64,000 bases of DNA from Lautropia sp. (GCA_050248115.1 JBFWSZ010000009.1:142475-206474), one strand, 5' to 3'; positions 11,676 to 64,000 are shown, counted from the first letter of the stretch. Translations and numbers: made by a program. The notes: generated by a model from the sequence alone, not told the origin.

Positions 11676-11688
11676 GGGCGAGCACCGC

Positions 11689-13421: not shown

Positions 13422-13426
13422 GTGCG

Positions 13427-13471: not shown

Positions 13472-13497
13472 GGCGTGAAGATCGATAGGAGGTCGTC

Positions 13498-13911
13498 GTG
13501 ACCGATCCGGTTCAGATCGCGTTGTTGAGCCCGCCGGACCTGTTCCCGGGCATCACCTACGAACATGCGGCCGTCGTCGGCGACTTCGTGTTTCTCGCCG
13601 GGCAGGTCGCGCGCAACGGGCGCGGCGAAACCGTGGCGCCGAACGACACGCTCGGGCAGCTCGCGCCGACCTATGCGAACCTGAAGCGCGTGCTGGAATA
13701 CGCCGGCTGCACCCCGGCCGACGTCGTCAAGGTCACGACCTACCTCGTCGACGCGAGCCAGATGCAGCGGGTGCTCGAGGCGCACGCCGCGTTCTTCGAC
13801 GGTCACAGGCCGCCGCACACGCTGGTCGTCGTCGAACGTCTCACGCGCCCCGACATGCGGATCGAAGTCGACGCGATCGCGCGCCGTGGCAGCGGGGTGC
13901 GTGCCGGTTGA
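13498..13911 (+). CDS. RidA/YjgF/L-PSP family enamine/imine deaminase
   Basis: 137 aa, GTG start 7 nt after AGGAGG. Contains FVFLAGQVA...NLKRVLEYAGCTPADVVKVTTYL...RIEVDAIA, typical of RidA. Confidence 0.85.
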   Translation: MTDPVQIALLSPPDLFPGITYEHAAVVGDFVFLAGQVARNGRGETVAPNDTLGQLAPTYANLKRVLEYAGCTPADVVKVTTYLVDASQMQRVLEAHAAFFDGHRPPHTLVVVERLTRPDMRIEVDAIARRGSGVRAG

Positions 13912-13966
13912 ACGTCGGAACACGGGCGTGGCGCGGCGCGCCGACGCGACTCATCGAGGGCTGTGC

Positions 13967-14779
13967 ATGAAGATCTGGTATCAGAGCATGACGAAGGCCT
14001 CGGCATGGCCTGCCTACAACGCCGCGCTGCGGCAGGTGCTGGAGGAAGCCGGCGACAGCGGCACCCGTTTCCACATCCGCGGCATCGAGAAGCGCGGCGG
14101 CGTCGGCGACCAGTATCGGTACCTCGAGCTGATCGAGACCCAGGAGGTGCTGGAGAACGTCGAACAGGCGACGCGCGAGGGATACGACGCCTTCCTGATC
14201 GGGAACATCTGCGACCCCGGGCTGCGCGAGGCGCGCGAGATCACCGACATGCCCGTGCTCGGACTCGGCGAAACCTCGGCGCAGATCGCCACCCTGCTGG
14301 GCGGCAATTTCTCGATGATCACGGGTTCGCCGAAGCACGTTCCGAAGCTGGTCGAACACATGCGGCGCTACGGGCACCGCGACACGCTGCACAGCGCCAG
14401 GTCGATGCAGATGATCCGGCTGGTCGACCTCGACCAGGGGTTCTCGGATCCCGCCACCGGGCAGGCCCTGATCTCGCGGTTCCTGAGCGAGGCACAGCGC
14501 GCGGACGCGGAGGGCGCCGAAGTGGCGATCCCCGCGGTTGGCGTACTGATGGTGCTGCTCGCGCGCGCAGGCATCAACGTCACGGCGCCGGACGGAATCC
14601 CGATCCTCAACGGCGTCAAGGCGCTGGTCAAGATGGGCGAGAGCGCGGTGCGCCTGCGCGCACTGATGGGCAACGTCTGGACGTCCAGGCGCTGCATGTA
14701 CCAGCAGCCGCCGGCGAGCCAGCTGGGCGAGATCCGGCAGTACTACGGTCGCGTCTACAGCGGCCTGCCCGATCACTGA
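13967..14779 (+). CDS. Asp/Glu/hydantoin racemase-fold protein (HyuE-like), paralogue 3
   Basis: ATG at 13967 in ORF 13886-14779: MKIWYQSMTKASAW... First loop DAFLIGNICDPGLREAREITDMPVLGLGETS. Second loop AIPAVGVLM lacks Cys. Confidence 0.8.
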   Translation: MKIWYQSMTKASAWPAYNAALRQVLEEAGDSGTRFHIRGIEKRGGVGDQYRYLELIETQEVLENVEQATREGYDAFLIGNICDPGLREAREITDMPVLGLGETSAQIATLLGGNFSMITGSPKHVPKLVEHMRRYGHRDTLHSARSMQMIRLVDLDQGFSDPATGQALISRFLSEAQRADAEGAEVAIPAVGVLMVLLARAGINVTAPDGIPILNGVKALVKMGESAVRLRALMGNVWTSRRCMYQQPPASQLGEIRQYYGRVYSGLPDH

Positions 14780-16814: not shown

Positions 16815-17486
16815 TCAGGTGCGGGCGGCGTCGAACATGCGCATGAGTCGCCGGACCGTGCATTCGGGCGAGGTGAGCACCGGTATCGTCACCGCGTCGC
16901 GGACCCGCGGCGCCGCGCGGGTCATCGAGACCTGGACGAACGCGATGGCGCTGCAATCCGCGTACCGCGTGGCGGCGTCGACGACGCGCGCATCGTGCTC
17001 GTCCTGACGCAGGTCGAGCGCCGCGTCGAAGGCATGTTCGACCATGTGCGGCCGGACGTCGAGCGCCCGGTCGACGCGCAGCGAGTGCTCCTGCAGTTCG
17101 CGCTGCATGAGCGTCAGCGTGGGTTCGAAGGTCGTGAGCAGCGCGACCGGGCCTTCGAATCGGCCGATTTCATCGTACAGCGCCTCGTTCGGCTTGAGAA
17201 TCGGCACGGCATGCTCGGCTTGCGCCGCATCGACGGCAGGGCTGAAGGCCGAGCCCGTGAATACCACGGCGTCTGCCCCGGCGCCCACGCAGTAGCGCGC
17301 GAGCGCGTGGCACCGCTGCGCCAGCGCGTCCGTCAGGCCGCCCGCGGCGCCGAGGTCTGCATAGAGCGAACTGTCGAGGACCTGGAAGACCGATGCCTGC
17401 GGCCACATCGAACGGAAGCAGTCCTCGATCGGGCCCATCGAGATGGAATGTGCGTGCACCAGATAGATTCGTGGTGATGTCTGCAT
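16815..17486 (-). CDS. Asp/Glu racemase-superfamily protein (function unknown)
   Basis: 223 aa. Shows a two-lobe racemase-fold pattern (...ADAVVFTGSAFSPAV...VPILKPNEA...IAFVQVSMT...IPVLTSPE...). Convergent with the Bug gene, with a 9-nt gap. Confidence 0.65.
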   Translation of the reverse strand: MQTSPRIYLVHAHSISMGPIEDCFRSMWPQASVFQVLDSSLYADLGAAGGLTDALAQRCHALARYCVGAGADAVVFTGSAFSPAVDAAQAEHAVPILKPNEALYDEIGRFEGPVALLTTFEPTLTLMQRELQEHSLRVDRALDVRPHMVEHAFDAALDLRQDEHDARVVDAATRYADCSAIAFVQVSMTRAAPRVRDAVTIPVLTSPECTVRRLMRMFDAART

Positions 17487-44975: not shown

Positions 44976-45294
44976 CGGGCTGCTCCGGATCCCAGCCACG
45001 GACTTCCTGCCAACGGGCGCGAAACACCGCCCACTCGGCGTCGGCGCGCGACACCCAGCGCCCGCCGATCGGCTCGACGGCGCGCTCCCGGCCGCCGAGC
45101 CGCACCAGCGTCCATCCGCCTTCGCGCGGCAGGCGCATCAGCGCGTGCTTGCCTGCCGCGGGCAGATTGCGCAGCGGGCGCAGGAACGCCTCGAGTTCGA
45201 CGTCGTACGGTCCGAGCGGCGCCTGTCGGAAGCGCCGGATCAGTGCGCGCTCGCGGTCGTCGGCCGGACGGGGTTCAGTGGTCGATTCGCTCAC
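44968..45294 (-). CDS. Putative small (alpha) subunit partner of the DMFase-like enzyme
   Basis: 108 aa, GTG start at 45294. Translationally coupled to the large subunit (ATGTCTGA overlap). The position and size parallel dmfA1-dmfA2. I do not recognise any independent motif. Confidence 0.5.
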   Translation of the reverse strand: MSESTTEPRPADDRERALIRRFRQAPLGPYDVELEAFLRPLRNLPAAGKHALMRLPREGGWTLVRLGGRERAVEPIGGRWVSRADAEWAVFRARWQEVRGWDPEQPDV

Positions 45295-46963
45295 GGTGAA
45301 GGGCGACGAAGTGATCGGAATAGTCGTGTCTGGCGATGCGCGCGTCGATCAGTACCGGCACGCCCTGCAGGTTCAACCGCCGGGCCTCGTCGATCGCCGC
45401 GTCGACCTGTGCCGGGTCGGTGAGCGTGATCCCGTGGCAGCCTTGCGCGCGCGCGATCGCGGCGAAATCCGGACCGATCGCGAACCCGGTGCTGGTGAGC
45501 GGCTTGTTCATCAGCACCTGGTTGTACTGGACCCAGCCGAACGCCTGGTTGTTGAGCACGATCCATGTGACGCCGCACCGGTGTTCGGCGGCAGTCGCGA
45601 GCTCGACGATCGACATCTGCATCGCCCCGTCGCCGACGAAGCAGACCACCTGCTTCTTCGGGCGCGCGAGCTTGGCGCCGATCGCGCCGATCGCACCCAT
45701 GCCCATCGCGGTCTGCTCGGCCATCGGAACGCAATCGCCGACGTCGAGCACCCGGTAGTACGGCCAGTAGTAGCACCAGAGGTCGGCCCCCCCATTCTCC
45801 TTCATCAGGATCGTGTCGTGTCCGAAGATGCGATTGACCGCGTCGAGCAGCTGGCGGGTGCGGATCGGCGTGTGGTGCACCCGCGCATCGGCGAGGCACG
45901 TCTGCGTGTACTCGTGGCTGGTGGTCGCGAGTCGCCGTGCGCGGGTATCGTCGCGCCGGTGGCCCCGCCGGTCGAGTTCGGCCTCGATATCGCGCAGGCT
46001 CAGTCGCACGTCGCCCACCATCCCGACGGCCGGTTGCCAGTTCATGCCGATCGCCTCGGAATCGATGTCGATCTGGATCATGCGCGCGTGCTTCGGATAC
46101 AGCGTCCAGCTGTTGGTGCTGAAGGCCTCGAGCCGCGAGCCGAGGACCAGCATGAGGTCGGCTTCGTCGTACCACGCCTTGCCGGCGGCGGTGAAGTACA
46201 GGCCGATCTGTCCCAGCGCGTTGGGTCCGTCCTCCGGGTAGATCCCGCGCCCACTGGGGGTGGTGAAGACCGGCGCCGCCAGCCGGTCGGCGAGGCGCGC
46301 CACTTCGTCGGCCGCGCCCGACACGACGCTCCCGCCGCCGGCGACGATGACGGGCTGGCGGGCGTTGCCGAGCAGTTCGCCGGCCAGCGTCACCCGCTCG
46401 GGGTCGGGGCGGGTGCGCCCGCAGTGCTGAGACCTCTGGTACCCGGTCCACGGCAGTCGCAGATCCGCGAGGTCCGACGGCAGCTCGACGAACACCGCGC
46501 CGGGCCTGCCGTTTCGGGCGATGCCGAACGCACGCTGCATCACCCAGGGCATGCGGCGCGGATCGGCGACGCGCTCCATCCATTTCGTCACCGGCTTCAT
46601 CAGCGTTCGCGTGTCGAGTTCCTGGAACGCACCCATGCCCTCCTGCGCCTGCACGACGCCGTTGGCAATGGCGACGATCGGCACCGAGCCGCAGGTCGCC
46701 TCGAGCAGCCCGGTGACGAGATTGGTGATGCCGGGTCCCGGGTTAGAGAACAGCACGCCCGGCTCGCCGGTGAGTCGGCCCCAGGCGTACGCACAGGCGA
46801 CGGCGGACTTCTCGTCGCGCATCAACACGAAGCGGATGTCGGAGTGCTCCTGAAGATCGTAGATCAGGTGCTTCGGGTTGCCGGGCAGGCCGAAGACGCA
46901 GGTCACGCCCTCTACCTTCAGCGATTCGACGACGGCGCGCCACGGACCGACGGAGTCGGGCAT
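45275..46963 (-). CDS. Thiamine-diphosphate-dependent enzyme (acetolactate synthase large-subunit / benzoylformate-decarboxylase family)
   Basis: ATG at 46963 after GAGGAG in ORF 45275-47074. Contains VESLKVEGVTCVFGLPGN...NPGPGITNLVTGLLEA...GAFQELD... and the ThDP motif GDGAMQM...NNQAFG. The stop overlaps the next gene start by 20 nt. Confidence 0.85.
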   Translation of the reverse strand: MPDSVGPWRAVVESLKVEGVTCVFGLPGNPKHLIYDLQEHSDIRFVLMRDEKSAVACAYAWGRLTGEPGVLFSNPGPGITNLVTGLLEATCGSVPIVAIANGVVQAQEGMGAFQELDTRTLMKPVTKWMERVADPRRMPWVMQRAFGIARNGRPGAVFVELPSDLADLRLPWTGYQRSQHCGRTRPDPERVTLAGELLGNARQPVIVAGGGSVVSGAADEVARLADRLAAPVFTTPSGRGIYPEDGPNALGQIGLYFTAAGKAWYDEADLMLVLGSRLEAFSTNSWTLYPKHARMIQIDIDSEAIGMNWQPAVGMVGDVRLSLRDIEAELDRRGHRRDDTRARRLATTSHEYTQTCLADARVHHTPIRTRQLLDAVNRIFGHDTILMKENGGADLWCYYWPYYRVLDVGDCVPMAEQTAMGMGAIGAIGAKLARPKKQVVCFVGDGAMQMSIVELATAAEHRCGVTWIVLNNQAFGWVQYNQVLMNKPLTSTGFAIGPDFAAIARAQGCHGITLTDPAQVDAAIDEARRLNLQGVPVLIDARIARHDYSDHFVALHRERIDH

Positions 46964-46982
46964 CTTCAGCTCCTCTTCATGA

Positions 46983-48599
46983 TCAATGCGTTGCTGGCCG
47001 CGCGACCGGCACGAGCCTCGGGATGGCGGCGAGCAGTTCGCGGGTATAGGGGTGTTGCGGGTCGGACAGCACATGCTGCGCGTCGCCGTGCTCGACGACG
47101 CGCCCCGTCTTCATGACGACGATCCGGTCGGCCATCCGGGACGCGACGCGCAGGTCGTGCGTGATGAAGACCATGCCGAGGCCGTCGCGCGCCTGGACGA
47201 GCTCGAGCAGGTCCAGGATCTCCGCCTGCACCGATACGTCGAGCGCGGATACCGGCTCGTCGGCGACGAGCAGCCGTGCCCGCATCGCGAGCGCGCGCGC
47301 GATGACGATGCGCTGGCGCTGGCCGCCGGAGAACTCGTTCGGATAGCGGTCGGCGCTCTTCGGATCCACCTTGACCCTCGCCAGCAGCGCTCGTGCCTCC
47401 TCGAACGCCTGTGCGCGCGGCGTGCCGTTGGCGATCGGCCCCATCGCGATGCTGTGGCCGACGGTATGTCTGGGATTGAGTGATGCGTACGGATCCTGGA
47501 ACACCATCTGCACGGCTCGCCGCACCGGTGCGAGGCGGTTCGCCGGCAGCGCGAGGTAGTCGTCGGCGACGTCCGCCAGTCTCGCGACGCCGGCGTCGGC
47601 GTCGGCGAGCCGCACGAGCAGCCTCGCGAGTGTCGACTTGCCGCTGCCGGACTCGCCGACCACGGCGACCGTCTCGCCGCGCCCGACGCTGATGTCGACG
47701 TCGGCCACGGCTATGGTGCTGGCGCCCCGCCGCCACCAGGGGCCGGTTGCGCGCCAGGTCTTCTCGAGGCCACGCGCGTCCAGCAGCGCAGCGGTCGGCC
47801 TTCGCGACGCGCGCGGGGCGAGCGGCGGCACCGCCGCCAGCAGGCGCTGCGTGTAGGGCACGCGCGGGTTGCCGAGCACGGTGTCTCGTGCGCCGGCTTC
47901 GACGAGACGACCATCCTTGAGCACCGCGACGTCGTCCGCCATCTCGGACACGACGCCGAAGTCGTGGGTGATCAGAAGCAGGCCGAGATTGCGCCGCCGC
48001 TGAAGCTCGCGCAGCAGCGCGAGGATCTGCGCCTGGGTCGTGACGTCGAGCGCGGTCGTCGGTTCGTCGGCGATGACGAGCGTAGGGTCTGCGGCGAGCG
48101 CGATCGCGATCATCACGCGCTGGCGCTGCCCGCCCGACAATTGCCAGGGGTACTTGTCGACGAGCGTGTCGGCGCCCGGCAGGCCCACGTCGGTCAACAG
48201 CTCGAGCACCCGGGCGCCGCGATCGCCCGGCCAGCGGTGCCGGTCGAGCACTTCGCGCACCTGCCGTCCGACGCGTTCGAGCGGATTCAGGCAGGACAGC
48301 GGGTCCTGGAACACGTAGCCGATCCGTCCGCCGCGGATCTCGAGCAGTTCGGCAGGCGCCATCGCCAGCGTGTCGCGGCCTTCGAACAGGATGCGCCCGC
48401 CGGTGACGCGCAGGCGCGGCGAGGGCAACAGGCGCACGATCGCCGCTGCCGCGAGCGACTTGCCCGATCCGGACTCGCCGACGACGCAGAGCGTGCGCCC
48501 GCGATGCACCTGCAGGTTCACCTCCTCGACGGCGTGACGCCTGTCGGCGCCGGGCGGCAGCTCGATCGTCAGCGCCTGGACGTCCAGCAGCGCGGTCAT
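46983..48599 (-). CDS. Fused double ATP-binding-cassette protein of a peptide/nickel-type (DppD-DppF-like) ABC importer
   Basis: ATG at 48599 (ATGA overlap with the permease stop) in ORF 46983-49193. Two Walker A motifs (GESGSGKS twice), two signatures (LSGGQRQRV, FSGGQRQRI) and PYT motifs. Confidence 0.88.
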   Translation of the reverse strand: MTALLDVQALTIELPPGADRRHAVEEVNLQVHRGRTLCVVGESGSGKSLAAAAIVRLLPSPRLRVTGGRILFEGRDTLAMAPAELLEIRGGRIGYVFQDPLSCLNPLERVGRQVREVLDRHRWPGDRGARVLELLTDVGLPGADTLVDKYPWQLSGGQRQRVMIAIALAADPTLVIADEPTTALDVTTQAQILALLRELQRRRNLGLLLITHDFGVVSEMADDVAVLKDGRLVEAGARDTVLGNPRVPYTQRLLAAVPPLAPRASRRPTAALLDARGLEKTWRATGPWWRRGASTIAVADVDISVGRGETVAVVGESGSGKSTLARLLVRLADADAGVARLADVADDYLALPANRLAPVRRAVQMVFQDPYASLNPRHTVGHSIAMGPIANGTPRAQAFEEARALLARVKVDPKSADRYPNEFSGGQRQRIVIARALAMRARLLVADEPVSALDVSVQAEILDLLELVQARDGLGMVFITHDLRVASRMADRIVVMKTGRVVEHGDAQHVLSDPQHPYTRELLAAIPRLVPVARPATH

Positions 48600-53726: not shown

Positions 53727-54221
53727 CTACTCGACGTCCCGATGCTCGGCGAGTTCGGGCATGAGTTCGTCCTTTCGTGCCTTCAGCTGCCGGCCGAGCG
53801 CGCGTAGATCGAGCGAGGTCTTGCGCAGCTTCGGAAACAGCGCTTCTTCTTCCTCCTTCACGTGGTGCTCCACGTACTCGCCGAGGACCTTGACGCGCGC
53901 GACGAACAGATCGCTCTCCAGACCGTCCGACTCGATCAGGCCGATCAGCTCCTTTGCCGTGTCGTGCTCGACCTGCGCCTCGTCGAGGAGGTCTTCGTCG
54001 TCCAGTGCTTCGCGCGCGGCAGGGTAGAGGATCTCCTCTTCGATGCTCGTGTGGGTCGTCAGCATCGCGCAGATCGTTCGCGCGATGTCTTCGATGGCAT
54101 CGTCCTCCTCCGCCTTCTCTGCAAGTGCCTTGAAGTCGTCGAAGAGCGACTTGACCTGCGCGTGATCGGCGGCCAGCAACGCGAGGGCGTCTGGCGTATC
54201 GGTGGACGGCGTCGTGCTCAT
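53727..54221 (-). CDS. Hemerythrin (HHE cation-binding) domain protein
   Basis: ATG at 54221 after GGAGA in ORF 53727-54470, 164 aa. Contains LLAADHAQVKSLFDDF...HTSIEEEILYPA...EHDTAKELI...YVEHHVKEEEEALFP. Confidence 0.8.
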   Translation of the reverse strand: MSTTPSTDTPDALALLAADHAQVKSLFDDFKALAEKAEEDDAIEDIARTICAMLTTHTSIEEEILYPAAREALDDEDLLDEAQVEHDTAKELIGLIESDGLESDLFVARVKVLGEYVEHHVKEEEEALFPKLRKTSLDLRALGRQLKARKDELMPELAEHRDVE

Positions 54222-54346
54222 GGGGTTCTCCGTGGGGTTGAGCGGCAACCGGGGCGCCGGCGCCATGCAACCGCCGTACCTGCCTTCTTGCCGCCACCGG
54301 CGTTCAGGCGCCGGGTGCAGGACGCTCGACGTCGGGCCCGTTAAAA

Positions 54347-54448
54347 CGAGAGTAAGGGCAACGACTTCTAATCGCCCGCGTGCGCGGGACAGGGCCCTTG
54401 CCTCCAGGTGTTCGTACCGGGAAAATGGAAGCGATTCCCTTACTCTCG
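54347..54448. repeat. Perfect 12-bp inverted repeat flanking a 78-bp segment
   Basis: CGAGAGTAAGGG at 54347-54358 and its exact reverse complement CCCTTACTCTCG at 54437-54448. The enclosed segment holds a second palindrome, CCCGCG-tg-CGCGGG (54374-54387). The element lies in the divergent hemerythrin/recombinase intergenic region, and its right arm ends 7 nt before the recombinase ATG. Confidence 0.7.
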
Positions 54449-54455
54449 AACTGGC

Positions 54456-55430
54456 ATGAGCGGTCTGCAAGCTTCACTGTTCCCGGACGACCCCGCGCAG
54501 CACGCCCTCGACGCGGCGCTGGCGCAGTGGCTGACCACCCGGCGGGGCGAAGGGGGGAAGCCGCTTCGCCGCCGCTCGGAGCAGAGCTATCGGCGACTCT
54601 GGGCCGCGGTGGCGCGGTTTCTCGGCGACCGGCAGATCGCGTTGGGCGCGGTGTCGACCTCGGACCTTCGCGAACTGCTCGATTCACGCCAGCCGCGAGG
54701 CGAGGCGCTGCACGCGACCGTCCGCTATGGCTGGACCGTGCTGTGGCTCATCGAACAGGTCGCGCTCGCGATGGGGGATGCAGGCAAGGCTGCCGCGCGT
54801 GCCGCGCGCGAGCTCCTGGACGCGGAGCCGTGGCGCTATGCGAACGCGAACGATTCGGCGATTCCCGACCATCTCGACCCGCGGGCGGCGCGGGTACTGA
54901 TCGATTTCCTGCAGGTAGCACCCGACACTTGGAAAGCCTGCCGCGACAAGGCGGCGGTCGCGCTGATGCTGGGCGCGGGCCTGCGGCCGGGCGAAGTCCG
55001 CAGCCTGTTGCTGTGCGAAGTCGTCGGCAGCGAGCGCACCGGCCCCTGGAAGCTCTCGCTCGAGTCGCGCAACGCGATCGTGGCGCACGAGACCCCGATG
55101 GCGCGCTGGGCCTCGAGGCTGCTTCGCCGCTGGCTCGAAACCAGGGAGGCGCTCGGAATGCCCGGCGGTTACGTCTTCGCCAGCACCGCCAGGGGCACGG
55201 CCTGGAGCGAGCCGAACCTCATCGCGCGGTGCAATGCGGTGCTCTCGCAGTCGGGGATCGACGGCAGGCACGCGGCGGGCGGCCTCTTCTTCCTGCGCCA
55301 CACGTTCGCGTTGCGCCAGCTCGCGCGCGGCCGAAGCGACGCCGAACTCGCTCGGTGGCTCGGCATCAGGGACGTCGGACGCATCGCGCGCTATCACGGC
55401 GTGATCCCGGCCCCGGTCGACGTGGCCTGA
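54456..55430 (+). CDS. Tyrosine recombinase (XerC/XerD / phage-integrase family), atypical active site
   Basis: ATG at 54456 in ORF 54408-55430; GTG at 54408 is an alternative. Box I is ALMLGAGLRPGEVRSL. Box II is FLRHTFALRQLARG....ARWLGIRDVGRIARYH, with the Tyr nucleophile present. Both conserved His positions look substituted. Confidence 0.75.
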   Translation: MSGLQASLFPDDPAQHALDAALAQWLTTRRGEGGKPLRRRSEQSYRRLWAAVARFLGDRQIALGAVSTSDLRELLDSRQPRGEALHATVRYGWTVLWLIEQVALAMGDAGKAAARAARELLDAEPWRYANANDSAIPDHLDPRAARVLIDFLQVAPDTWKACRDKAAVALMLGAGLRPGEVRSLLLCEVVGSERTGPWKLSLESRNAIVAHETPMARWASRLLRRWLETREALGMPGGYVFASTARGTAWSEPNLIARCNAVLSQSGIDGRHAAGGLFFLRHTFALRQLARGRSDAELARWLGIRDVGRIARYHGVIPAPVDVA

Positions 55431-55653: not shown

Positions 55654-56526
55654 ATGTCGGACTATCTGGTTCAGGGCAAGCTCGGGTTCACCGCCGGCTA
55701 CAAGCTGCAGCGACGGTGGGGGCTCACCGAGGCCTGCGTGTTCACGCTCGAATGCGCTGGTGCGCCGCTTCTCGCGATGTCGCTGATGCTGAAGACGGAG
55801 CCGGCAGCCTATCTCACCGGCCTGATGATGGTGATGCTCGCGATCGGCCTGCTGCTGCACCACCTCGGCCACCCGCGCCGCGCGTGGAAGGCCGTGCTCA
55901 ACGTGCGCCATTCGTGGATCAGCCGAGGCACCCTTGCGCTCGGGGCGTTCGTCCTGCTCGGCGCCGCCTGGCTGGCCGTCGGCCTGGGCGGCGGGTCGTT
56001 GCTCGATGGACGAGCCGCGGCGTCGATCGCGTGGGTGTTCGCGGCGGGAGCGCTCTTCATCGGGCTGTACCCCGGGCTGGTGCTGTCCGCGTCGCCGGCG
56101 ATCGCGTTCTGGAACAGCGGCCTGCTGCCGCTCCTGTCGTTGCTGCAGGGCGTCGCGAGCGCGACCGCGATGCTCGTCGCCTTCGCGGGACACGACGCAG
56201 CACCTCACGCGCCGCGGCTCGCGACCGTGCTGCTCTGGCTGCTCGCGGCCAATGCGCTCGTGCTGGCGCTGTACGTCGCGGGCATGCTCGGGCGTGGCGC
56301 GGCGGCGGCCGAGTCGGCGAGGCACCTGCTGCGCGATCACGCGGCGCTCTTCGTCGCGGGGGCCTGCGGGCTCGGGATCGTGCTGCCGTTCGCCCTGACG
56401 GCGTCGCTCGCGCCCGAGCGGGCGGGCAGCATCGTGCTCGCGCTCGGCGCGCTCGCCCGGCTGCTCGGCGACCTCGCGCTGCGCCAGTCGTTCCTGAAGG
56501 TCGGCATGTTCGAACGCGTCATCTGA
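55654..56526 (+). CDS. NrfD/PsrC-type integral membrane quinone-interacting subunit of a complex iron-sulfur molybdoenzyme
   Basis: ATG at 55654 (or 55624) in ORF 55471-56526. About 290 aa with about 8 hydrophobic helices and the NrfD-like start ...W.L.EA..F.LE.AGA.LL.... Confidence 0.75.
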   Translation: MSDYLVQGKLGFTAGYKLQRRWGLTEACVFTLECAGAPLLAMSLMLKTEPAAYLTGLMMVMLAIGLLLHHLGHPRRAWKAVLNVRHSWISRGTLALGAFVLLGAAWLAVGLGGGSLLDGRAAASIAWVFAAGALFIGLYPGLVLSASPAIAFWNSGLLPLLSLLQGVASATAMLVAFAGHDAAPHAPRLATVLLWLLAANALVLALYVAGMLGRGAAAAESARHLLRDHAALFVAGACGLGIVLPFALTASLAPERAGSIVLALGALARLLGDLALRQSFLKVGMFERVI

Positions 56527-56535
56527 ATCGGCACC

Positions 56536-59151
56536 ATGGACCCGAGCCAGCACGGTCATCCCGCGTCCCCGATCACCGGTCCCGACCCGGCCACGCCTGA
56601 CGACCGGTGGGTGCCGACCGTCTGCCTCGGCTGCTACAACTGCTGCGGGATCAGGGTGCGCCGGGTCGCGCAGAAGGTCGTCGACGTCGTCGGCGATCCC
56701 GATTCGCCGAACTCTCGCGGCCATATCTGCGCGAAGGGCAAGGCGCGCTTCTTCGACCTCTACCACCCGAACCGGGTAACGCGCCCGCTGCGACGCCGCA
56801 ACCCGGAGAAGGGCGTGGGCGTGGATCCGCAGTGGGAGCCGATCTCCTGGGACGAAGCGCTGGACGAGGTGGCTGCCAGGCTCCGGGAGACGCGCGAGCG
56901 GGACCCGCGCGGCCTCGTCATCGCCCATTTCGATCTTCCGGCGTACGGCATCAGCAGCGCGTTCGGTGCCGCCTTCGGAACGCCGAACCTGCATTGGAAC
57001 CGGGCCGACTATTGCGGCGCGGCGCCGCACGTCGCCAACCTGTTGATCAACGGCTCGTTCAACGGCGAGGTGGATCTGGACCTGTGCAACCACATCGTGC
57101 TGTGGGGCACGCAGCTGGGGCACCTGGTCGAGACGATCCCGCTGCACGCCGCGCACAAGATGGCCGACGCGCGGGCGCGTGGCGCACGCCTGGTCGTGAT
57201 CGACCCGTTCTGTACGAACGCCGCCGCCAAGGCAGACGAGTGGGTGCCGATCCGTCCGGGCACCGACGGCGCGCTGGCATTGGGCATGCTCAGGACGATG
57301 GTGGTCGAGGACGGGACGGTCGACCACGCGTTCCTGAAGCGCCACACGAATGCGGCCTATCTCGTGCAGGCCGACGGGCACTATCTGCGCGACGAGGCCA
57401 GCCGCAAGCCGCTGGTATGGGATGCCGCTGGCGGGCGGGCGGCGCCGTTCGACGAGGTCGCGCCCGAGGCGGTCGCACTCGACGGCACGCATGTCGTCGG
57501 GTCGATCGAGGTGAAGCCCGCCTTCGAGGCGCTCCGACTGCACCTCGAGCGCATGTCGATCGACGAGATCGCCTCGATCACGACCATTGCCGCGCCGACG
57601 ATCCGCAGGCTCGCGCGCGACTTCGTCGCAGCGGCACGGATCGGCAGCACGATCGTCGTCGACGGCCAGGTGCTGCCGCTGCGCCCGGCGGCGATCCACT
57701 TCAAGCGCGGCTCCGGCGCCCACAAGGGCGGCTTCCACACGATGCTCGCGATCCACCTGATCAACGTGATGGTGGGCAACATCGACGTGCCCGGTGGCCA
57801 GCGCGGCGTCAATCCGATCGGCCCGTACTGGCAGGTCGAGACGGACAACGACGGCATGCTGATCCCGTCGCCGATCATCACCAAGTACAGCCGCCCGTAT
57901 CCCGCGAGCGAGCCCAAGACCCCGACGACCTTCGACCTGCGCGAGCTCTTTCCGACCTCGCTGTTCACGCGCGGCCTCTACCCGCTGGCCATCTCGCAGC
58001 CCGAGCGCTTCGGCATCCCGTATCGCGCCAGCGTGCTGATGCACGGGCGCACCAACCTGATGATGAACAGCCACAACGCCGAGGCGATGGCGAGCGTTCT
58101 GAAGTCGATTCCGTTCCAGGTCTCATTCGCCGACGGCATCGACGAGACGGTGGAGTTCGCCGACATCGTGCTGCCGGACGCGCACGACTACGAGCGGTGG
58201 GACCTCTTTCCGGCCAACGACCCCTACGCGTTCATCACGCCGGGGCCGGGCGAGTGGTTCTGGCTGATGCGCCAGCCCGTGCTGGAGGCGCCCGACGGCG
58301 TCCGCCCGTGGACCGAGGTCTGTCTCGAGCTCGCCGAGCGTCTCGGCATCCTCGAGAAGCTCTACGAGCTCGGCAACGGCATCTGGCGCATCGACGAGGC
58401 GAACCGCCTGGATCCGACGCAGCGCTACAGCGTGCGCGACATCGCCGAGCGGCAGGCGAAGTCGATCGTCGGCGCGCAGTTCAGCATCGGCGACCTTCGC
58501 GACAGCGCCTGCGTCGTCACCCGCGACAAGACGCTCGCCGAGGCCTTTCCTCGCCCGTTCCTCACCGCGCGCATGCCGATCTACTTCGAGCACCTGATCG
58601 ATGCCGGTCGCGAGGTCGCGGCGGTCGCCGACCGACTCGGGCTCGACGGATGGGACGTGACGCCGTACGCGCCGCTGCTGAGCTTCTTCGCGTGCGAGGC
58701 GCTCGAGCCCGACGGGGACTTCGACCTCTTCATCGTCAATTTCAAGGTGCCCTTCCAGACCTTCTCGGTCACGGCGGAGAACCCGTGGATCGACGAGATC
58801 TCGCGCGCGAACCCGTACACCTACAACGTGATGATGAACCGCGCGACTGCGGTCGCAAAGGGGCTCGGCGACGGCGATGCGGTGCTGGTGGAATCGCGAC
58901 ACGGCACCGAGCGCGCGACGCTCCGGCTCACCGAGCTCATCCACCCGGAGTGCCTCGGCATCCCGGGCATGTTCGGGCACTGGGCGGCGCGCAAGACCGT
59001 GTCGAACCGCAAGGGCGCGTCGTTCAACAACCTGCTGCCGCCGCCGGACCTGTCGCGCATCGACATCGTCACCGGCCAGGTCGATTCATGCACGCGCGTG
59101 CGGGTCAGCCGCATCCCGGAGCCCGGCGTTCACAGACGGAGGTGGCGGTGA
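56536..59151 (+). CDS. Molybdopterin (bis-MGD) oxidoreductase catalytic subunit, DMSO-reductase family, without Tat signal
   Basis: 871 aa. N-terminal FS0 motif CLGCYNCCGIRV...GHICAKG. Mo-enzyme core motifs follow (...RPGTDGALALGM...). The C-terminal barrel ends ...VTGQVDSCTRVRV. There is no RR motif in the 30 residues before the first Cys. Confidence 0.88.
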   Translation: MDPSQHGHPASPITGPDPATPDDRWVPTVCLGCYNCCGIRVRRVAQKVVDVVGDPDSPNSRGHICAKGKARFFDLYHPNRVTRPLRRRNPEKGVGVDPQWEPISWDEALDEVAARLRETRERDPRGLVIAHFDLPAYGISSAFGAAFGTPNLHWNRADYCGAAPHVANLLINGSFNGEVDLDLCNHIVLWGTQLGHLVETIPLHAAHKMADARARGARLVVIDPFCTNAAAKADEWVPIRPGTDGALALGMLRTMVVEDGTVDHAFLKRHTNAAYLVQADGHYLRDEASRKPLVWDAAGGRAAPFDEVAPEAVALDGTHVVGSIEVKPAFEALRLHLERMSIDEIASITTIAAPTIRRLARDFVAAARIGSTIVVDGQVLPLRPAAIHFKRGSGAHKGGFHTMLAIHLINVMVGNIDVPGGQRGVNPIGPYWQVETDNDGMLIPSPIITKYSRPYPASEPKTPTTFDLRELFPTSLFTRGLYPLAISQPERFGIPYRASVLMHGRTNLMMNSHNAEAMASVLKSIPFQVSFADGIDETVEFADIVLPDAHDYERWDLFPANDPYAFITPGPGEWFWLMRQPVLEAPDGVRPWTEVCLELAERLGILEKLYELGNGIWRIDEANRLDPTQRYSVRDIAERQAKSIVGAQFSIGDLRDSACVVTRDKTLAEAFPRPFLTARMPIYFEHLIDAGREVAAVADRLGLDGWDVTPYAPLLSFFACEALEPDGDFDLFIVNFKVPFQTFSVTAENPWIDEISRANPYTYNVMMNRATAVAKGLGDGDAVLVESRHGTERATLRLTELIHPECLGIPGMFGHWAARKTVSNRKGASFNNLLPPPDLSRIDIVTGQVDSCTRVRVSRIPEPGVHRRRWR

Positions 59152-59747
59152 GCAAGTACGCGATGGCGATCGATCTGTCCCGATGCAACGGCTGCAATGC
59201 CTGTGTCGTCGCCTGCAAGGTCGAGCACAGCGCGCCGAACGAGATCCTGCTGACGACGATCCTCGAGAAGGAGGTCGGCCGGTATCCGGACGCCAATCGC
59301 CTGTTCTTCCCGGTGCTGTGCAACCACTGCGAAGCGCCGCCCTGCGTTCCGGTGTGCCCCACCAGGGCGACCTTCAAGCGCGAAGACGGCATCGTGCTGA
59401 TCGAGGACGACGACTGCATCGGCTGCGGCGCCTGCATCGCGGCCTGCCCTTACGAGCAGCGCTTCTACGTCGAGGACGAGCGCACGTGCTTTCCGTCCGG
59501 CGAAGGCCGCTACCTCAACCCGCACGCGCACAAGGCGCAGCAGGGCGTTCCGGTGAAGTGCGACTTCTGCTTTCACCGGGTCGACGAAGGCCGCCCGCCC
59601 GCCTGCGTCGAGGCGTGTCCGACCGAGGCGCGGATCTTCGGGCTCCTGGACGCGGGCGAGAAGCCGCTGAACGCGCTGATCAGTCGCGAGAACTGCTTCA
59701 CGCTGCTGCCCGACAAGGGCACCAAGCCGAACGTGTACTATTTTTGA
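59148..59747 (+). CDS. Four-cluster 4Fe-4S ferredoxin subunit (DmsB/PsrB-like)
   Basis: GTG at 59148 (GTGA overlap) in ORF 56607-59747; ATG at 59160 is an alternative. Four Cys groups: CNGCNACVVAC, CNHCEAPPCVPVCP, CIGCGACIAACP and CDFC...CVEACP. Confidence 0.88.
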   Translation: MSKYAMAIDLSRCNGCNACVVACKVEHSAPNEILLTTILEKEVGRYPDANRLFFPVLCNHCEAPPCVPVCPTRATFKREDGIVLIEDDDCIGCGACIAACPYEQRFYVEDERTCFPSGEGRYLNPHAHKAQQGVPVKCDFCFHRVDEGRPPACVEACPTEARIFGLLDAGEKPLNALISRENCFTLLPDKGTKPNVYYF

Positions 59748-59793: not shown

Positions 59794-61098
59794 ATGAGCA
59801 ATGCCAAGAGGGCCTCGGGGCCCATCGTCGAACCCGTCGTTCACCACGCAGCCGAGGCCGTCGCCTCGCCTCGTGCCTCGCGGCGCGGCCTGTTGAAGGG
59901 AAGCGGCGCGGGGGCGGCGCTGGCCCTGCTCGGCGGTGCGGTCGGTGCGCCGCGCGTGGCCGGTGCGCAGGCGCCGACGGTCAAGATCGGCTCGATCGGT
60001 CCGTTGACCGGCGCACTCGCCTACAACGGCAACCAGGCGAAGGCAGGCATCCAGTACGCCGTGGACGACATCAACGCGAAGGGCGGCATCAAGAGCCTGG
60101 GCGGCGCGAAGCTCGAGGTGATCTACACCGACGCCGAATCCCGTCCCGACGTCGCGGCCGCGCAGGTCGACAAGCTCGCGGAAGCCGGCGTCAGCTGTCT
60201 CGTCGGCTGCCAGGCGAGCAGCCTCACGCTCGCGACGACCCAGGCGGCGGCGCGCTACAAGCTGCCGCAGGTGATCGACGTCGGCACCGCCGAGCAGATC
60301 GTCGAACGGGGCCTGCCGAACGTGTTCCGCTTCTCGCCGGGCGTGGTGCGCTCGGTCGAGCAGGGCATCGTGAACCTGGACACCATCAACAAGAATTCCG
60401 GCAAGAAGGTCAAGACGGTCGCGGTCGTGCACGAGGAGGGTCCGTTCGGATCGGGCATGGCGAAGATCCTGAAGGAGAAGCTGCCCGGCATCGGCCTCGA
60501 GGTGATCGAGACGATCAGCCATCCGACGCCCCAGCGCGACTTCAACAACATCGTGCTTCGGCTCAAGGCGGTGAAGCCCGACCTCGTGATGCCGTCGCAC
60601 TACATCAACGAGTTCATCCTGTTCGCGCGAACGATGCGCCAGCAGCGCTTCTCGCCCAAGGCGATGTATTCGATCTACGGCGGCGGCGCGTCGAACATCC
60701 GGTTCGTGCGCGAGCACAACGAGGCGGCCCAGTACATCATCGACACCAACCACTGGTACGACCCGCGCCGCGAGCTGTCCAAGTCGGTGGCCAAGCGGGC
60801 GGCCGACGCCAAGCTCGACCTGACCTACGACATCATGGTGGCGTACGGTGCGACGCAGCTGATCGGCGACGCGCTCGAGCGTGCGAAGTCTTCCGACCGC
60901 GAAAGGCTGATCGAGACACTCGCGACCGAGACCTTCAACGAGACGATCATGCCCTACGGCCCGATCAAGTTCGTGAAGGGCGACAACACCGGCTCGCGGC
61001 TGGTGAACACGCAGATCCGCGGCGACAAGATCGAGGTGATCTTCCCCAAGGAATTCGCGACGATCGAGCCCGTCTTCCCGATGCCAGGACGCATCTGA
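59794..61098 (+). CDS. Leu/Ile/Val-type ABC transporter substrate-binding protein with Tat-like signal
   Basis: 434 aa. Contains SRRGLLKGSGAGAALALLGGA...A.APTVKIGSIGPLTGALAYNGNQAKAGIQYAVDDINAKGGI. GGAGGAAG RBS. Confidence 0.85.
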   Translation: MSNAKRASGPIVEPVVHHAAEAVASPRASRRGLLKGSGAGAALALLGGAVGAPRVAGAQAPTVKIGSIGPLTGALAYNGNQAKAGIQYAVDDINAKGGIKSLGGAKLEVIYTDAESRPDVAAAQVDKLAEAGVSCLVGCQASSLTLATTQAAARYKLPQVIDVGTAEQIVERGLPNVFRFSPGVVRSVEQGIVNLDTINKNSGKKVKTVAVVHEEGPFGSGMAKILKEKLPGIGLEVIETISHPTPQRDFNNIVLRLKAVKPDLVMPSHYINEFILFARTMRQQRFSPKAMYSIYGGGASNIRFVREHNEAAQYIIDTNHWYDPRRELSKSVAKRAADAKLDLTYDIMVAYGATQLIGDALERAKSSDRERLIETLATETFNETIMPYGPIKFVKGDNTGSRLVNTQIRGDKIEVIFPKEFATIEPVFPMPGRI

Positions 61099-61111: not shown

Positions 61112-61984
61112 ATGCTGAGCCTCGTCCTGCCGGCGGCGATCAGCGGTCTCGCGACGGGCGCGGTCTACGCGCTCGTCGCGCTCGGCCTCACGCTGATCTA
61201 CGGGGTGCTTCACATCATCAACTTCGCGCACGGCAGCCTGTTGATGGCGGCGCTCTACTCGGCGTACTTCCTGAATCGGCACGCCGGGCTCGACCCCTAC
61301 GTCGCGCTGCCGCTGCTGACGGTGGTGTTCTTCGGGCTCGGCTATGCGCTGCAGCGCTATGTGATCAGCCCGTTCAGCCACGGCAAGGACGGCAACATCC
61401 TGCTCGTGACGCTCGCGATCGCGATCATCGTCGACAACCTCGCGCTGTACTTCTTCACGTCCAACACCCGCACGATCGACGTCGCGCTCGCCGGCGAGAT
61501 GGTCGAGATCGGCCCGGCGTTCGTGCCGCTGCCACGGGTGATCGCCTTCGTCGCCTCGATCGCGATCGCCGGCCTGCTGTGGCTGGTGCTGGCGCGCACG
61601 CGGCTCGGCAAGGCGATCCGCGCGGTCGCTCTCGAGAAGCGCGGCGCCGAACTGATGGGCATCGACGTCAGGCACACCTATGCGATGTGCTTCGGCATCG
61701 GTTCGGCATGCGTGGCGGCGGCGGCTTGCCTGCTGCTGCCGTCGTTCTACGTGACCCCGCAGGTCGGCTACGCATTCGTCCTCGTCGCGTTCACGACGGT
61801 GGTGATGGGCGGCATGGGCTCGCTGCCCGGCGCACTGGTCGCAGGCCTGCTGCTCGGCGTCGTCGAGGCGCTGTGCGGGCTCTTCTTCGGCGAGACTCTC
61901 GGTCAGATCGGCATCTACGCGTGCTTCATCCTCACGCTGCTGTTCCGGCCGGCGGGGCTCTTCAGCGCGAGGGCGGCGCGTTGA
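61112..61984 (+). CDS. livH: Branched-chain amino acid-type ABC permease (LivH-like)
   Basis: 290 aa. Contains GLATGAVYALVALGLTLIYGVLHIINFAHG. Confidence 0.85.
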   Translation: MLSLVLPAAISGLATGAVYALVALGLTLIYGVLHIINFAHGSLLMAALYSAYFLNRHAGLDPYVALPLLTVVFFGLGYALQRYVISPFSHGKDGNILLVTLAIAIIVDNLALYFFTSNTRTIDVALAGEMVEIGPAFVPLPRVIAFVASIAIAGLLWLVLARTRLGKAIRAVALEKRGAELMGIDVRHTYAMCFGIGSACVAAAACLLLPSFYVTPQVGYAFVLVAFTTVVMGGMGSLPGALVAGLLLGVVEALCGLFFGETLGQIGIYACFILTLLFRPAGLFSARAAR

Positions 61985-62967
61985 GTCGCGGTCCGGTATC
62001 GACCCTCGTGCTCGCCGAGTCGATCGCGCTGGTCGCGATGCTGGTGGCGGTCGCGGTGCCGTTCTTCCTGAGCTCGCAGGGCACGATCGGCTTCGCGATT
62101 AACGCGATGCTGATCAGCCTGCTCGGCATCGCGTGGAACCTCACCGGCGGCTTCGGCGGGCTGATGTCCTTCGGCCACGCGGTGCTGTTCGGCAGCGGCG
62201 CCTATGCGAGCGCGATGCTTCAGATCCACCTGGGGCTGAACGCCTGGCTCGCCGCCGCGTTCGGCATCCTCGCCGGCGGGCTGGTGGGTGCGTTCGTGGG
62301 GGCGCTGTCCTTTCGCTACGGGCTTCGCGGTTCCTACTTCGCGCTGGTGACGCTCGCGTTCGCCGAGGTGTTCCGGGTGCTGGCGAGCTCGTTCCAGGTG
62401 ACCGGCGGGGGTACCGGCCTGTCGGTGGACCTGAAGCCCGGCATCGCGAACCTGCAGTTCGCCGATCGGCTCTCGAGCTACGGCTTCGTCGTGATCCTCG
62501 TGGCGATCGCCCTGCTGGTGTCGCTCGCGGTCAGGCGGTCGCGTTTCGGCGCATGGCTGATCGCGGTGCGCGAGAACGAGGAGGCCGCCAAGGCGGTCGG
62601 CGTCGACGTCTTCCGGATCAAGGTCGCGGCCATGGCGCTGTCCGGCCTGATCGCGGGCGGCGCGGGTGTCGCGTACCTGCAGATCTACCTGTTCGTCGAC
62701 GCGCCGATCGGATTCGGCCCGACGATGTCGATCGACGCGCTGCTCGGTCCGATGATCGGTGGGGCGGGCACGCTCATGGGCCCGGTGCTGGGCACGGTCG
62801 TGCTGCACGTGATCGGCGAAGTGGCGAAGGATTTCATCGGCGACGCCCCAGGCCTGAACCTGGTGCTCTACGGTGTGGTGCTGCTGCTGATCCTGCGGTT
62901 CATGCCCAACGGGTTGATGGGCGTACTGAGCGCGCTGCTGCGACGCGCCCGCGGCGGGGGCGGGTGA
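61981..62967 (+). CDS. livM: Branched-chain amino acid-type ABC permease (LivM-like)
   Basis: TTG at 61981 (TTGA overlap) in ORF 61579-62967. Contains GIAWNLTGGFGGLMSFGHAVLFGSGAY...AVRENEEAAKAVGVDV. Confidence 0.8.
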   Translation: MSRGPVSTLVLAESIALVAMLVAVAVPFFLSSQGTIGFAINAMLISLLGIAWNLTGGFGGLMSFGHAVLFGSGAYASAMLQIHLGLNAWLAAAFGILAGGLVGAFVGALSFRYGLRGSYFALVTLAFAEVFRVLASSFQVTGGGTGLSVDLKPGIANLQFADRLSSYGFVVILVAIALLVSLAVRRSRFGAWLIAVRENEEAAKAVGVDVFRIKVAAMALSGLIAGGAGVAYLQIYLFVDAPIGFGPTMSIDALLGPMIGGAGTLMGPVLGTVVLHVIGEVAKDFIGDAPGLNLVLYGVVLLLILRFMPNGLMGVLSALLRRARGGGG

Positions 62968-63725
62968 TGCTGACGGTCGATCGGGTGACGCGGCGCTTCG
63001 GCGGCCTCGTGGCCGTCGACGAGGCATCGCTGCAGGTGGACGCGGGGCGGATCGTCGCGCTGATCGGGCCCAACGGCGCCGGCAAGACCACGCTGTTCGC
63101 GACGATCGCCGGCTTTCTCGGGACCCATGGCGGCAGCATCGCGTTCGAAGGCCGGCGCATCGACGGTCTCGCACCGCATCAGATCTGTCGGCTCGGGATC
63201 GCCCGGACGTTCCAGATCGTGCAGCCGTTCGCCGGGTTGAGCGTGCGCGAGAACATCGCGATCGGCGCGCATCTGCATGCACCGCGGCGTGCCGACGCGA
63301 TGCGTGCCGCCGGCGACGTGGCGAAGCGACTCGGCATGGCCGACATGCTCGACCAGCCGGCGCAGGACCTCACCGTCGCCGGGCGCAAGCGGCTCGAGCT
63401 GGCCAGGGCGCTCGCGACCGGCCCGAAGCTGCTGCTGCTGGACGAAGTGATGGCCGGCCTGATACCGGGCGAGGTCGACGAGACCGTCGCGATGATCCGT
63501 CGGATCCGCGACGAAGGCGTGACTATCCTGCTGATCGAACACGTGATGCAGGCGGTGATGAGCCTGTCCGAGCACGTGTACGTCCTCAACCAGGGCAAGA
63601 TGATCGCGGACGGCCCCCCGGCCCGGCTGGTGTCCGACGCGCGCGTCATCGAGGCCTACCTGGGGGAGGGCGCGGCCGAGCGGCTGGCCCGTTCGACACG
63701 GCGCGAGCAGGGCGGTCCGGCATGA
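62967..63725 (+). CDS. livG: Branched-chain amino acid-type ABC ATPase (LivG-like)
   Basis: ATG at 62967 (TGATG overlap) in ORF 62133-63725. Contains RRFGGLVAVDEASL, Walker A GPNGAGKTT, signature region LTVAGRKRLELARAL and Walker B LLLDEV. Confidence 0.85.
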   Translation: MLTVDRVTRRFGGLVAVDEASLQVDAGRIVALIGPNGAGKTTLFATIAGFLGTHGGSIAFEGRRIDGLAPHQICRLGIARTFQIVQPFAGLSVRENIAIGAHLHAPRRADAMRAAGDVAKRLGMADMLDQPAQDLTVAGRKRLELARALATGPKLLLLDEVMAGLIPGEVDETVAMIRRIRDEGVTILLIEHVMQAVMSLSEHVYVLNQGKMIADGPPARLVSDARVIEAYLGEGAAERLARSTRREQGGPA

Positions 63726-64000
63726 GCGACGTATTGCTCGAGATCAGCGGCCTGCGTGCAGGCTATGGTCCGGTCGAGATCCTGCGCGGCATCGACATGC
63801 GGATCCTCGCAGGCGAGATCGTCGCCGTGCTCGGATCGAACGGCGTCGGGAAGTCGACGCTGAACAACGTCATCAGCGGGATCGTCGCGCCGACCGCGGG
63901 GCGCATCGTGTTCGCGGGCGACGACATCACCGGCGCGGCACCGAAGCGGATCGTCGAGCGCGGGCTCGCGCAGGTGCCGGAAGGCCGGCGGGTGTTTCCC
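63722..64000 (+). CDS. livF: Branched-chain amino acid-type ABC ATPase (LivF-like), 5' part; runs off the window end
   Basis: Own translation from the ATG at 63722 (ATGA overlap): MSDVLLEISGLRAGYGPVEILRGIDMRILAGEIVAVLGSNGVGKSTLNNVISGIV... Confidence 0.8.
   Translation, partial: MSDVLLEISGLRAGYGPVEILRGIDMRILAGEIVAVLGSNGVGKSTLNNVISGIVAPTAGRIVFAGDDITGAAPKRIVERGLAQVPEGRRVFP

Follow-up and report, generated by a model that had tools for sequence, protein, structure and literature searches.

Introduction

The complex iron–sulfur molybdoenzymes (CISM) are a superfamily whose fold and whose partnership of catalytic (A), ferredoxin (B) and membrane-anchor (C) subunits are textbook knowledge. The Psr and Phs enzymes of this superfamily, represented by the polysulfide reductase PsrABC and the thiosulfate reductase PhsABC, are periplasmic and carry a twin-arginine translocation (Tat) signal on A. 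PadBCD is the phenylacetyl-CoA:acceptor oxidoreductase of Thauera aromatica and Aromatoleum, for which the literature cites Rhee and Fuchs 1999, and SoeABC is a sulfite:quinone dehydrogenase of the Allochromatium vinosum type. According to two sources, the pad cluster consists of padJ, padBCD and padEFGHI, and PadBCD performs the alpha-oxidation of phenylacetyl-CoA (PMC4453571, PMC5109826); another lists SoeABC as cytoplasmic and Cys-ligated (PMC10100899). Here we analyse a three-gene operon for an enzyme of this general type, located in a stretch of 64,000 nucleotides from Lautropia sp. (GCA_050248115.1 JBFWSZ010000009.1:142475-206474; the whole stretch is called the window below). In the original prediction, made from the DNA alone, the enzyme was thought to face the cytoplasm, and either a PadBCD-like oxidation of an acyl-CoA or a SoeABC-like oxidation of sulfite was considered conceivable.

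Our comparisons place the enzyme as a member of a distinct, strongly conserved and uncharacterised family, lying within a Tat-less clade of the radiation that also contains PadB. By the same sequence criteria it is a relative of PadBCD and not an orthologue. We consider it probable that the enzyme faces the cytoplasm and that, linked to quinone, it dehydrogenates an imported organic acid or thioester; it is orthologous neither to SoeABC nor to PadBCD.

The operon and its predicted products

The three genes are co-directional on the plus strand in the order C-A-B (Table 1), and the layout given in the original prediction was recovered in full from open reading frames (ORFs) and Pfam matches: a 9-nt gap (56527-56535) separates the C stop from the ATG of A, A is of the predicted 871-aa length, and the GTG start of B overlaps the TGA stop of A as GTGA, with a GGAGG upstream of the GTG. 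GC content at third codon positions is 0.88-0.92 in the C, A and B frames (the window as a whole has about 69% GC), which marks all three as coding. A search for sequencing runs containing the stretch returned 12 DNA runs from four studies and no RNA run. The stop codon of C, TGA at 56524-56526, is in the frame of A and lies 12 nt, or four codons, before its ATG. Positions 56524-56538 read TGA ATC GGC ACC ATG, with three sense codons between the C stop and the A start; no sign of read-through between C and A was seen there, and the genes are separate in related loci. Selenocysteine read-through of this TGA was considered as a candidate and is unsupported, the two proteins being separate in all related loci.

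The catalytic subunit begins with MDPSQHGHPASPITGPDPATPDDRWVPTVCLGCYNCC and matches the Pfam domains Molybdop_Fe4S4, Molybdopterin and Molydop_binding, as expected for a protein binding bis(molybdopterin guanine dinucleotide) (bis-MGD). The cysteine motif for the FS0 cluster is intact, and the 29 residues ahead of its first cysteine (C30) include just one arginine and lack RR. Among solved structures the nearest is that of PsrA from Thermus thermophilus (PDB 2vpw, E 3.7e-39), with a good alignment over the N-terminal 250 residues only; there Cys160 of A is matched to Cys173 of PsrA, which we take to be the Mo ligand. Cys160, within the motif NRADYCG, is invariant in 22/22 aligned family members, as are the FS0 cysteines and long stretches of the protein, and alignment and invariance together make it the candidate for the metal ligand that had been left open in the original prediction. 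Among NCBIfam models PhsA gave the best match (211.5 bits versus a cut-off of 694). Formate dehydrogenase was rejected as an identity for A, which belongs to a different clade and scores only about 100-110 bits with the Fdh models.

B matches Fer4_11 (5.4e-23) and has four groups of cysteines (13/16/19/23, 58/61/66/70, 90/93/96/100 and 138/141/153/157), the first cluster motif lying directly at its N-terminal start. Its best NCBIfam match is DsrO, at 178 bits versus a cut-off of 200; since the alignment begins at model position 42, the Tat-signal part of the model is unmatched by B. No NCBIfam equivalog was reached by A, B or C, and in the ESM Atlas the enzyme fell only into generic 'molybdopterin-dependent oxidoreductase' clusters. 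The predicted products thus make up a CISM architecture, with a bis-MGD A subunit bearing FS0 and a putative Mo or W ligand, a four-cluster B and an adjoining membrane anchor C.

Phylogenetic position

When 1.84 billion cluster representatives were searched exhaustively with HMMER, 11,584 matched at E<=0.001, 640 of them up to 1e-30; the best 150 of the 11,584 are 28-72% identical to A, the best full-length ones 42%. From these 150, the 106 of 800-960 aa were taken for trees, 49 having RR on a long N-terminus and 57 lacking it. Trees were built with FastTree (118 rows) and IQ-TREE (quick mode, LG+G4, 52 rows) and were rooted on a SoeA-type paralogue from the window's genome (P0125), an outgroup with a long branch. 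The reference PadB was assigned by synteny, and the SoeA-type paralogue by the names that the Joint Genome Institute (JGI) gives to its homologues. The family of A is monophyletic with support of 99 (FastTree) and 100 (IQ-TREE), its sister being P0128, and it is nested in a clade in which every one of the 23 rows is Tat-less (support 99 in IQ-TREE; the main points agree in FastTree). PadB (P0126) groups with P0177, to which it is about 65% identical, and with P0157, in the other major group, which also holds most of the Tat-bearing forms; the branch parting the family from this group has support of 100 in IQ-TREE. From the wider radiation 36 representatives were sampled, and not one reached a curated NCBIfam family or equivalog. 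As to the phylogenetic placement asked for with the original prediction, these trees favour a position inside an all-Tat-less clade, apart from both PadB and the SoeA-type protein.

Comparison with PadBCD and SoeABC

Since the pad cluster is known to combine padBCD with padEFGHI, synteny was used to find a reference PadBCD. The NCBIfam model for PadI was searched in 401 genomes of the same order, and two genomes, G193 and G145, scored above the cut-off. G193 encodes PadE, PadG, PadH and PadI, all above their NCBIfam cut-offs, followed by an AraC-type regulator, a Tat-less 867-aa molybdoenzyme, a ferredoxin, a 298-aa membrane protein, FdhD and an enzyme of the xanthine dehydrogenase (XDH) type; because of this synteny the molybdoenzyme was taken as PadBCD. 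G145 has no relative of A on the contig that carries its padI and was left out. In G193 (L065, G193:C26, 14961-19000), the FdhD-type sulfurtransferase and the three subunits of the XDH-type enzyme that come after padBCD echo the XDH-type neighbour of the present family.

A and PadB align collinearly over their full length (34% identity over 855 residues, 426 bits), and C is 30% identical to the PadD-type anchor P0127 (E 2e-18). Both systems combine a Tat-less bis-MGD subunit of about 97 kDa bearing FS0 with a four-cluster ferredoxin and an NrfD-type anchor, and both are apparently inward-facing and linked to organic-acid catabolism. They differ in that the family of A lies in a separate clade, in that the order is C-A-B in the window and A-B-C in the pad cluster, in the absence of padEFGHI and padJ beside the window operon, where an integrase-family gene and a Liv importer are found instead, and in the anchor of some members of the family of A, which is NarI-like rather than of the NrfD type. 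No match to padI was found in the window's genome at E<=1e-60. Of the PadBCD option in the original prediction, the kinship therefore stands, PadBCD being the nearest characterised relative, and the orthology does not. An isoenzyme of PadBCD, oxidising phenylacetyl-CoA or 4-hydroxyphenylacetyl-CoA to an arylglyoxylate, would account for the shared subunit set, and a 4-hydroxyphenylacetate route would fit both the frequent neighbour resembling 4-hydroxybenzoyl-CoA reductase (see below) and a thiamine pyrophosphate (TPP) enzyme encoded at 45275-47074 of the window. We nevertheless regard such an isoenzyme as very unlikely: apart from the clade, the gene order and the missing padI, 34% identity to PadB contrasts with 54-85% within the family across phyla, and neither the immediate surroundings of the operon nor the annotated related loci showed a phenylacetate-CoA ligase or an arylglyoxylate oxidoreductase.

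SoeABC resembles the enzyme in other respects. Both are predicted to be cytoplasm-facing, Tat-less and Cys-ligated CISM enzymes, with an NrfD-type anchor whose charge bias puts the N-terminus inside. The window's genome (6.89 Mb in 17 contigs) has one strong paralogue of A, P0125 on contig 7, encoded in an operon of A-B-C order (L058 4713-9494, minus strand) that adjoins a LysR regulator gene; its subunits are a Tat-less A of about 1000 aa and 110 kDa, a B of 258 aa and a DmsC-like C of 309 aa. JGI applies the name 'sulfite dehydrogenase (quinone) subunit SoeA', an automatic annotation, to nine proteins, 82-84% identical to P0125, among its 120 listed homologues, and none of the 120 listed homologues of the window's A bears a SoeA name. 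A and P0125 are only 32% identical over 638 residues (217 bits, compared with the 426 bits to PadB), P0125 is about 130 residues longer, and its SoeA-type operon differs in gene order from that of the window. That the operon encodes a sulfite:quinone dehydrogenase of the SoeABC type, detoxifying cytoplasmic sulfite released by organosulfur genes elsewhere in the window, is very unlikely. The common architecture and a TauE sulfite-exporter gene about 5 kb upstream of the operon in one related locus (L004) speak for it; the separate SoeABC-type operon and the distance of the putative organosulfur genes, which are more than 22 kb from the window operon, speak against it. The sulfite-oxidising option of the original prediction consequently found no support.

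Predicted orientation in the membrane

Neither A nor B has a Tat signal in its N-terminus, and because the TGA of C stands in frame 12 nt upstream, no alternative upstream start can add one to A. The 22 aligned family members are all without a Tat signal; 21 of them have no RR before FS0, and the exception, P0019, has 'SRRE' ahead of FS0 with no hydrophobic stretch after it. Family N-termini before FS0 are mostly about 19 residues long, a few members, the window's A included, having a longer tail. Exported relatives look different: of the 106 other representatives, 49 are Tat-bearing, with N-termini of 46-92 residues that include a signal of the RRxFLK type. With signals so obvious in exported relatives, the absence of one from A is real, and since B lacks an export signal as well, there would be nothing for A to hitch-hike on.

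The anchor points in the same direction. C matches NrfD (5.5e-12) and DmsC (2.5e-6) in Pfam, and its start at 55654 agrees with the family N-terminus. Eight hydrophobic segments were called, and Lys plus Arg amount to 15 on the N-terminus, loops 2, 4 and 6 and the C-terminus versus 4 on the remaining loops; the same bias appears in 30/30 rows when the segments are mapped onto the alignment of family anchors, and in the SoeC-like anchor of the same genome (16 versus 4). According to the positive-inside rule, the termini of C and the conserved HLGxPxxxW loop are therefore predicted to be cytoplasmic. As a control, DmsC of Escherichia coli showed the opposite bias in its first loops (0, 3, 2, 3) but was split into nine segments by the same caller, and PadD was mis-segmented into six segments and showed no bias. 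The topology predicted for C is the reverse of that which we take PsrC and DmsC to have. The profile of the anchor family (A3) found no solved structure at E<=1.

Given the lack of signals and of an alternative start, the obvious signals of exported relatives, and a charge bias in C that recurs in every row examined, A and B very probably face the cytoplasm. The original prediction had described a Tat-less catalytic subunit probably facing the cytoplasm and had left two matters to be checked, a hidden upstream start and the topology of the NrfD subunit; the first is excluded by the in-frame stop, and the predicted N-in topology of the second suits docking of A and B on the cytoplasmic side, so that its reading of the orientation gains from both.

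A periplasmic reductase of the Psr or Phs type, hitch-hiking on a partner or using a signal that escapes recognition, might be suggested by the fact that the best solved and the best NCBIfam matches of A are PsrA and PhsA, respectively. The subunit types are indeed the same, and the FS0 and Mo-ligand cysteines align with those of PsrA. However, neither A nor B could serve as Tat carrier, the in-frame stop forbids a longer A, the PhsA score is far under its cut-off, the whole surrounding clade is Tat-less, and the predicted topology of C is the inverse of that of PsrC; of all the explanations considered, we give this one the least credence.

Distribution of the family and its two anchors

In a search of 5.8 billion proteins, 120 homologues of A were listed with 54-85% identity, nearly all of 844-885 aa and with generic names only; they come from Burkholderiales, Rhodospirillaceae, Vicinamibacterales and other metagenomic sources. 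Family members occur in metagenome-assembled genomes (MAGs) from several phyla, and the habitats range over oceans, lakes, groundwater and soils. Fifty loci, all from MAGs or single-cell genomes, were obtained by scanning a single genome for each species; the window was added to them, and the ORFs called in these 51 loci were clustered by all-against-all BLASTP. A is present in 51/51 loci and B in 50/51. Directly upstream of A, 29 of the 51 loci have an NrfD-like gene and 15 have a gene for an unrelated membrane protein of about 380 aa; the other seven are partly truncated or lack an adjacent anchor (L001/G409). Because a membrane protein gene precedes A in the 29 and in the 15 loci, the anchor-first order is a family trait, and the departure from the padBCD and soeABC orders stated in the original prediction is borne out and conserved across the family loci.

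The alternative anchor (L016, L019, L023, L025-L027, L029-L031, L033, L041-L043, L049 and L050; for example L042:8743-9888) has weak similarity to NarI (Pfam 8.7e-7; PDB profile match to NarI 0.017). It has conserved His residues in its helices, an invariant CxxCH, which is a haem-c motif, and a C-terminal cluster motif, DGCxHGGxCHxxC. A comparison of the two anchor types by hhalign gave no relation (probability 0.2%). Unusual arrangements were also seen in single loci: the operon occurs in L048 as two inverted copies, one reading B A B and the next, on the opposite strand, C B A, and L050, which at 38% identity is the most remote of the loci, has additional A and B genes in tandem. In a member of the sister clade, L076 (G538:C17), a 479-aa ORF after A (10327-11766) has a ferredoxin domain only in its first 160 or so residues and may be a ferredoxin fused to its membrane anchor.

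Among 172 genomes of the same taxonomic family, that of the window included, seven had a match at E<=1e-150, and a true member of the enzyme family was found only in the window's genome and in G409. In the latter (L078, G409:C1, 8612-12000), a minus-strand gene for an ATP-binding cassette (ABC) ATPase lies upstream of A and B, and an AMP-binding CoA ligase gene downstream. The 19 further genomes searched from the genus gave no match. This absence, together with a recombinase gene directly upstream of the operon (Table 1), suggests that the operon was horizontally acquired. In L014, too, there is an integrase-family gene, just downstream of the operon.

Gene neighbourhoods

A Liv-type importer, with a binding protein, two permeases and two ATPases, starts 47 nt after B, and the original statement that such an importer follows the operon directly was confirmed by Pfam (Table 1). 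A short-chain dehydrogenase/reductase (SDR) gene comes after LivF in the genome, just past the end of the window (L068). The best solved relative of the LivK-type protein is 8wch, a 'probable Leu/Ile/Val-binding protein' (1.2e-35), which, being unliganded by name, gives no clue to the ligand. Upstream of the operon there is also a gene for a MocR-type regulator, and at a greater distance upstream the minus strand encodes a Dpp-type ABC importer, the TPP enzyme mentioned above and a dimethylformamidase-like protein. Elsewhere in the window, an A and B pair of ATP-dependent hydantoinase/oxoprolinase genes and four genes of the Asp/Glu/hydantoin-racemase family were seen (556-4526, 5442-6356, 12624-14776 and 16815-17483), with several TctC-type binding proteins near them, which suggests a metabolism of cyclic amides or unusual amino acids in that part of the window.

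Table 1. Genes of the operon and its immediate surroundings, in window coordinates
Feature	Position	Strand	Remarks
Hemerythrin-domain gene, upstream of operon	53727..54470	opposite to operon	
Tyrosine-recombinase (phage-integrase family) gene, directly upstream of operon	54408..55430	+	Phage_integrase 2.5e-9
C subunit, NrfD/PsrC-type membrane anchor	55654..56526	+	290 aa, 30.1 kDa; 8 predicted helices; predicted N-in/C-in
A subunit, bis-MGD catalytic	56536..59151	+	871 aa, 96.2 kDa; FS0 C30/C33/C37/C65; putative Mo/W ligand Cys160; Tat-less
B subunit, four-cluster [4Fe-4S] ferredoxin	59148..59747	+	199 aa, 22.1 kDa; GTG start; without signal peptide
LivK-type periplasmic solute-binding protein, first importer gene	59794..61098	+	Peripla_BP_6 3.4e-46
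LivH-type permease	61112..61984	+	BPD_transp_2 4.7e-34
LivM-type permease	61579..62967	+	ORF, true start further downstream; BPD_transp_2 1e-42, ORF residues 170-439
LivG-type ATPase	62133..63725	+	ORF, true start further downstream; ABC_tran and BCA_ABC_TP_C, ORF residues 296-515
LivF-type ATPase	63722..64000	+	Runs off window; ABC_tran 2.2e-13; continuation seen in genome locus L068

For the related loci, neighbours within about 10 kb of the operon were counted in the 42 loci with at least 12 kb of sequence, by BLASTP against Pfam-labelled references at E<1e-8. A CoA-activating enzyme was found in 20/42 of them, any acyl-CoA gene in 27, a molybdenum enzyme of the XDH type in 16, a cyclic amidohydrolase or nitrilase-superfamily gene in 17 and an SBP_bac_5 binding protein in eight; Liv-type permeases recur in six of the 51 loci. 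The large subunit of the XDH-type enzyme scores best with the alpha subunit of 4-hydroxybenzoyl-CoA reductase (730 bits versus a cut-off of 994). In L014 a single tight operon comprises a CoA ligase, three XDH-type subunits, a nucleoside diphosphate (NDP)-forming acyl-CoA synthetase and a medium-chain dehydrogenase/reductase (MDR), followed by C-A-B, and a member of the sister clade (46% identity) lies beside enoyl-CoA hydratase, thiolase and SDR genes. The original prediction had argued from acyl-CoA and organosulfur genes in the window; that argument is weak, as such genes are absent from the 10 kb around the operon and a CoA-activating gene occurs in no more than about half of the related loci.

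Proposed mechanism and direction of electron flow

The mechanism that we consider most likely, by analogy with the characterised relatives, is the following. A, with a bis-MGD cofactor (Mo or W) ligated by Cys160 and with FS0, and B, with four [4Fe-4S] clusters, would both be made without an export signal and would dock on C, an eight-helix NrfD-type anchor with its termini and positive loops in the cytoplasm. An organic acid or CoA thioester, imported by the adjacent transporter, would be oxidised at the Mo centre with water as the source of oxygen, and the electrons would leave by way of FS0 and the four B clusters to reach a quinone on C. Overall, the respiratory chain would be fed by a dehydrogenation that does not depend on oxygen.

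The same architecture is symmetric as to direction, and a cytoplasm-facing, quinol-oxidising reductase has to be weighed, in which electrons would run from quinol through C and B to Mo and reduce an N-oxide, a sulfoxide or a hydroxylated ring, as in NarGHI or the cytoplasm-facing sulfur reductase of Aquifex. Its appeal is increased by the NarI-like anchor of 15 loci and by the XDH-type enzyme of 16 of the 42 loci, which is most like 4-hydroxybenzoyl-CoA reductase, an enzyme that is itself reductive. Moreover, both directions occur among inward-facing relatives, since the cytoplasmic bacterial sulfur reductase bSreA groups with SoeA (PMC10100899). On the other side, the Tat-less, NrfD-anchored relatives compared here, PadBCD and SoeABC, are both quinone-reducing dehydrogenases, and a catabolic context with importers, CoA ligases and hydrolases nearby fits oxidation better. 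We therefore judge a reductase unlikely, and a dehydrogenase of an imported organic acid or thioester the better account.

Several points weigh against a dehydrogenase of this kind as proposed here. Sequence does not reveal which way the electrons flow, and the location, the cofactor and the kind of substrate are likewise predictions from it. The topology method, a simple hydropathy caller combined with a positive-inside count, is crude, as seen from its mis-segmentation of DmsC and PadD, and its control is only suggestive. The related loci are kin and not independent samples, and the closest relative of A in a reference genome, that of G409 (79% identity), is encoded with B only, without an adjacent anchor gene. 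No gene for a CoA ligase, CoA transferase, acyl-CoA dehydrogenase or XDH-type enzyme lies within about 10 kb of the window operon, whose local context is the Liv importer and the SDR only. Finally, the neighbourhoods vary across the family, and in 15 of the 42 loci an acyl-CoA gene is missing within about 10 kb, so a CoA thioester as substrate is a guess.

A more specific proposal may be ventured, though we hold it to be rather doubtful. The enzyme could act as a quinone-linked hydroxylase that needs no oxygen, in a catabolic pathway not yet described whose substrate is a cyclic or N-containing organic acid, working in series with the molybdenum hydroxylase resembling 4-hydroxybenzoyl-CoA reductase, with CoA-activating enzymes and with cyclic amidohydrolases. 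Its hosts would be abundant uncultured marine Rhodospirillaceae, soil Vicinamibacterales and Desulfobacterota, and it would use two unrelated anchors, an inverted NrfD or a NarI-like cytochrome b with CxxCH.

Significance

To our knowledge, very few inward-facing members of the dimethyl sulfoxide reductase superfamily that feed the quinone pool have been studied. The conserved family to which the window's enzyme belongs sits inside a large Tat-less radiation, and it is often found in operons with CoA ligases and a second molybdenum enzyme. The operon offers a clean case in which to study the inversion of an NrfD-type anchor in the service of an enzyme of the cytoplasm. Identification of the substrate would give a function to many genes that are now annotated generically, and could bring to light a step by which organic acids are oxidised without oxygen during their breakdown.

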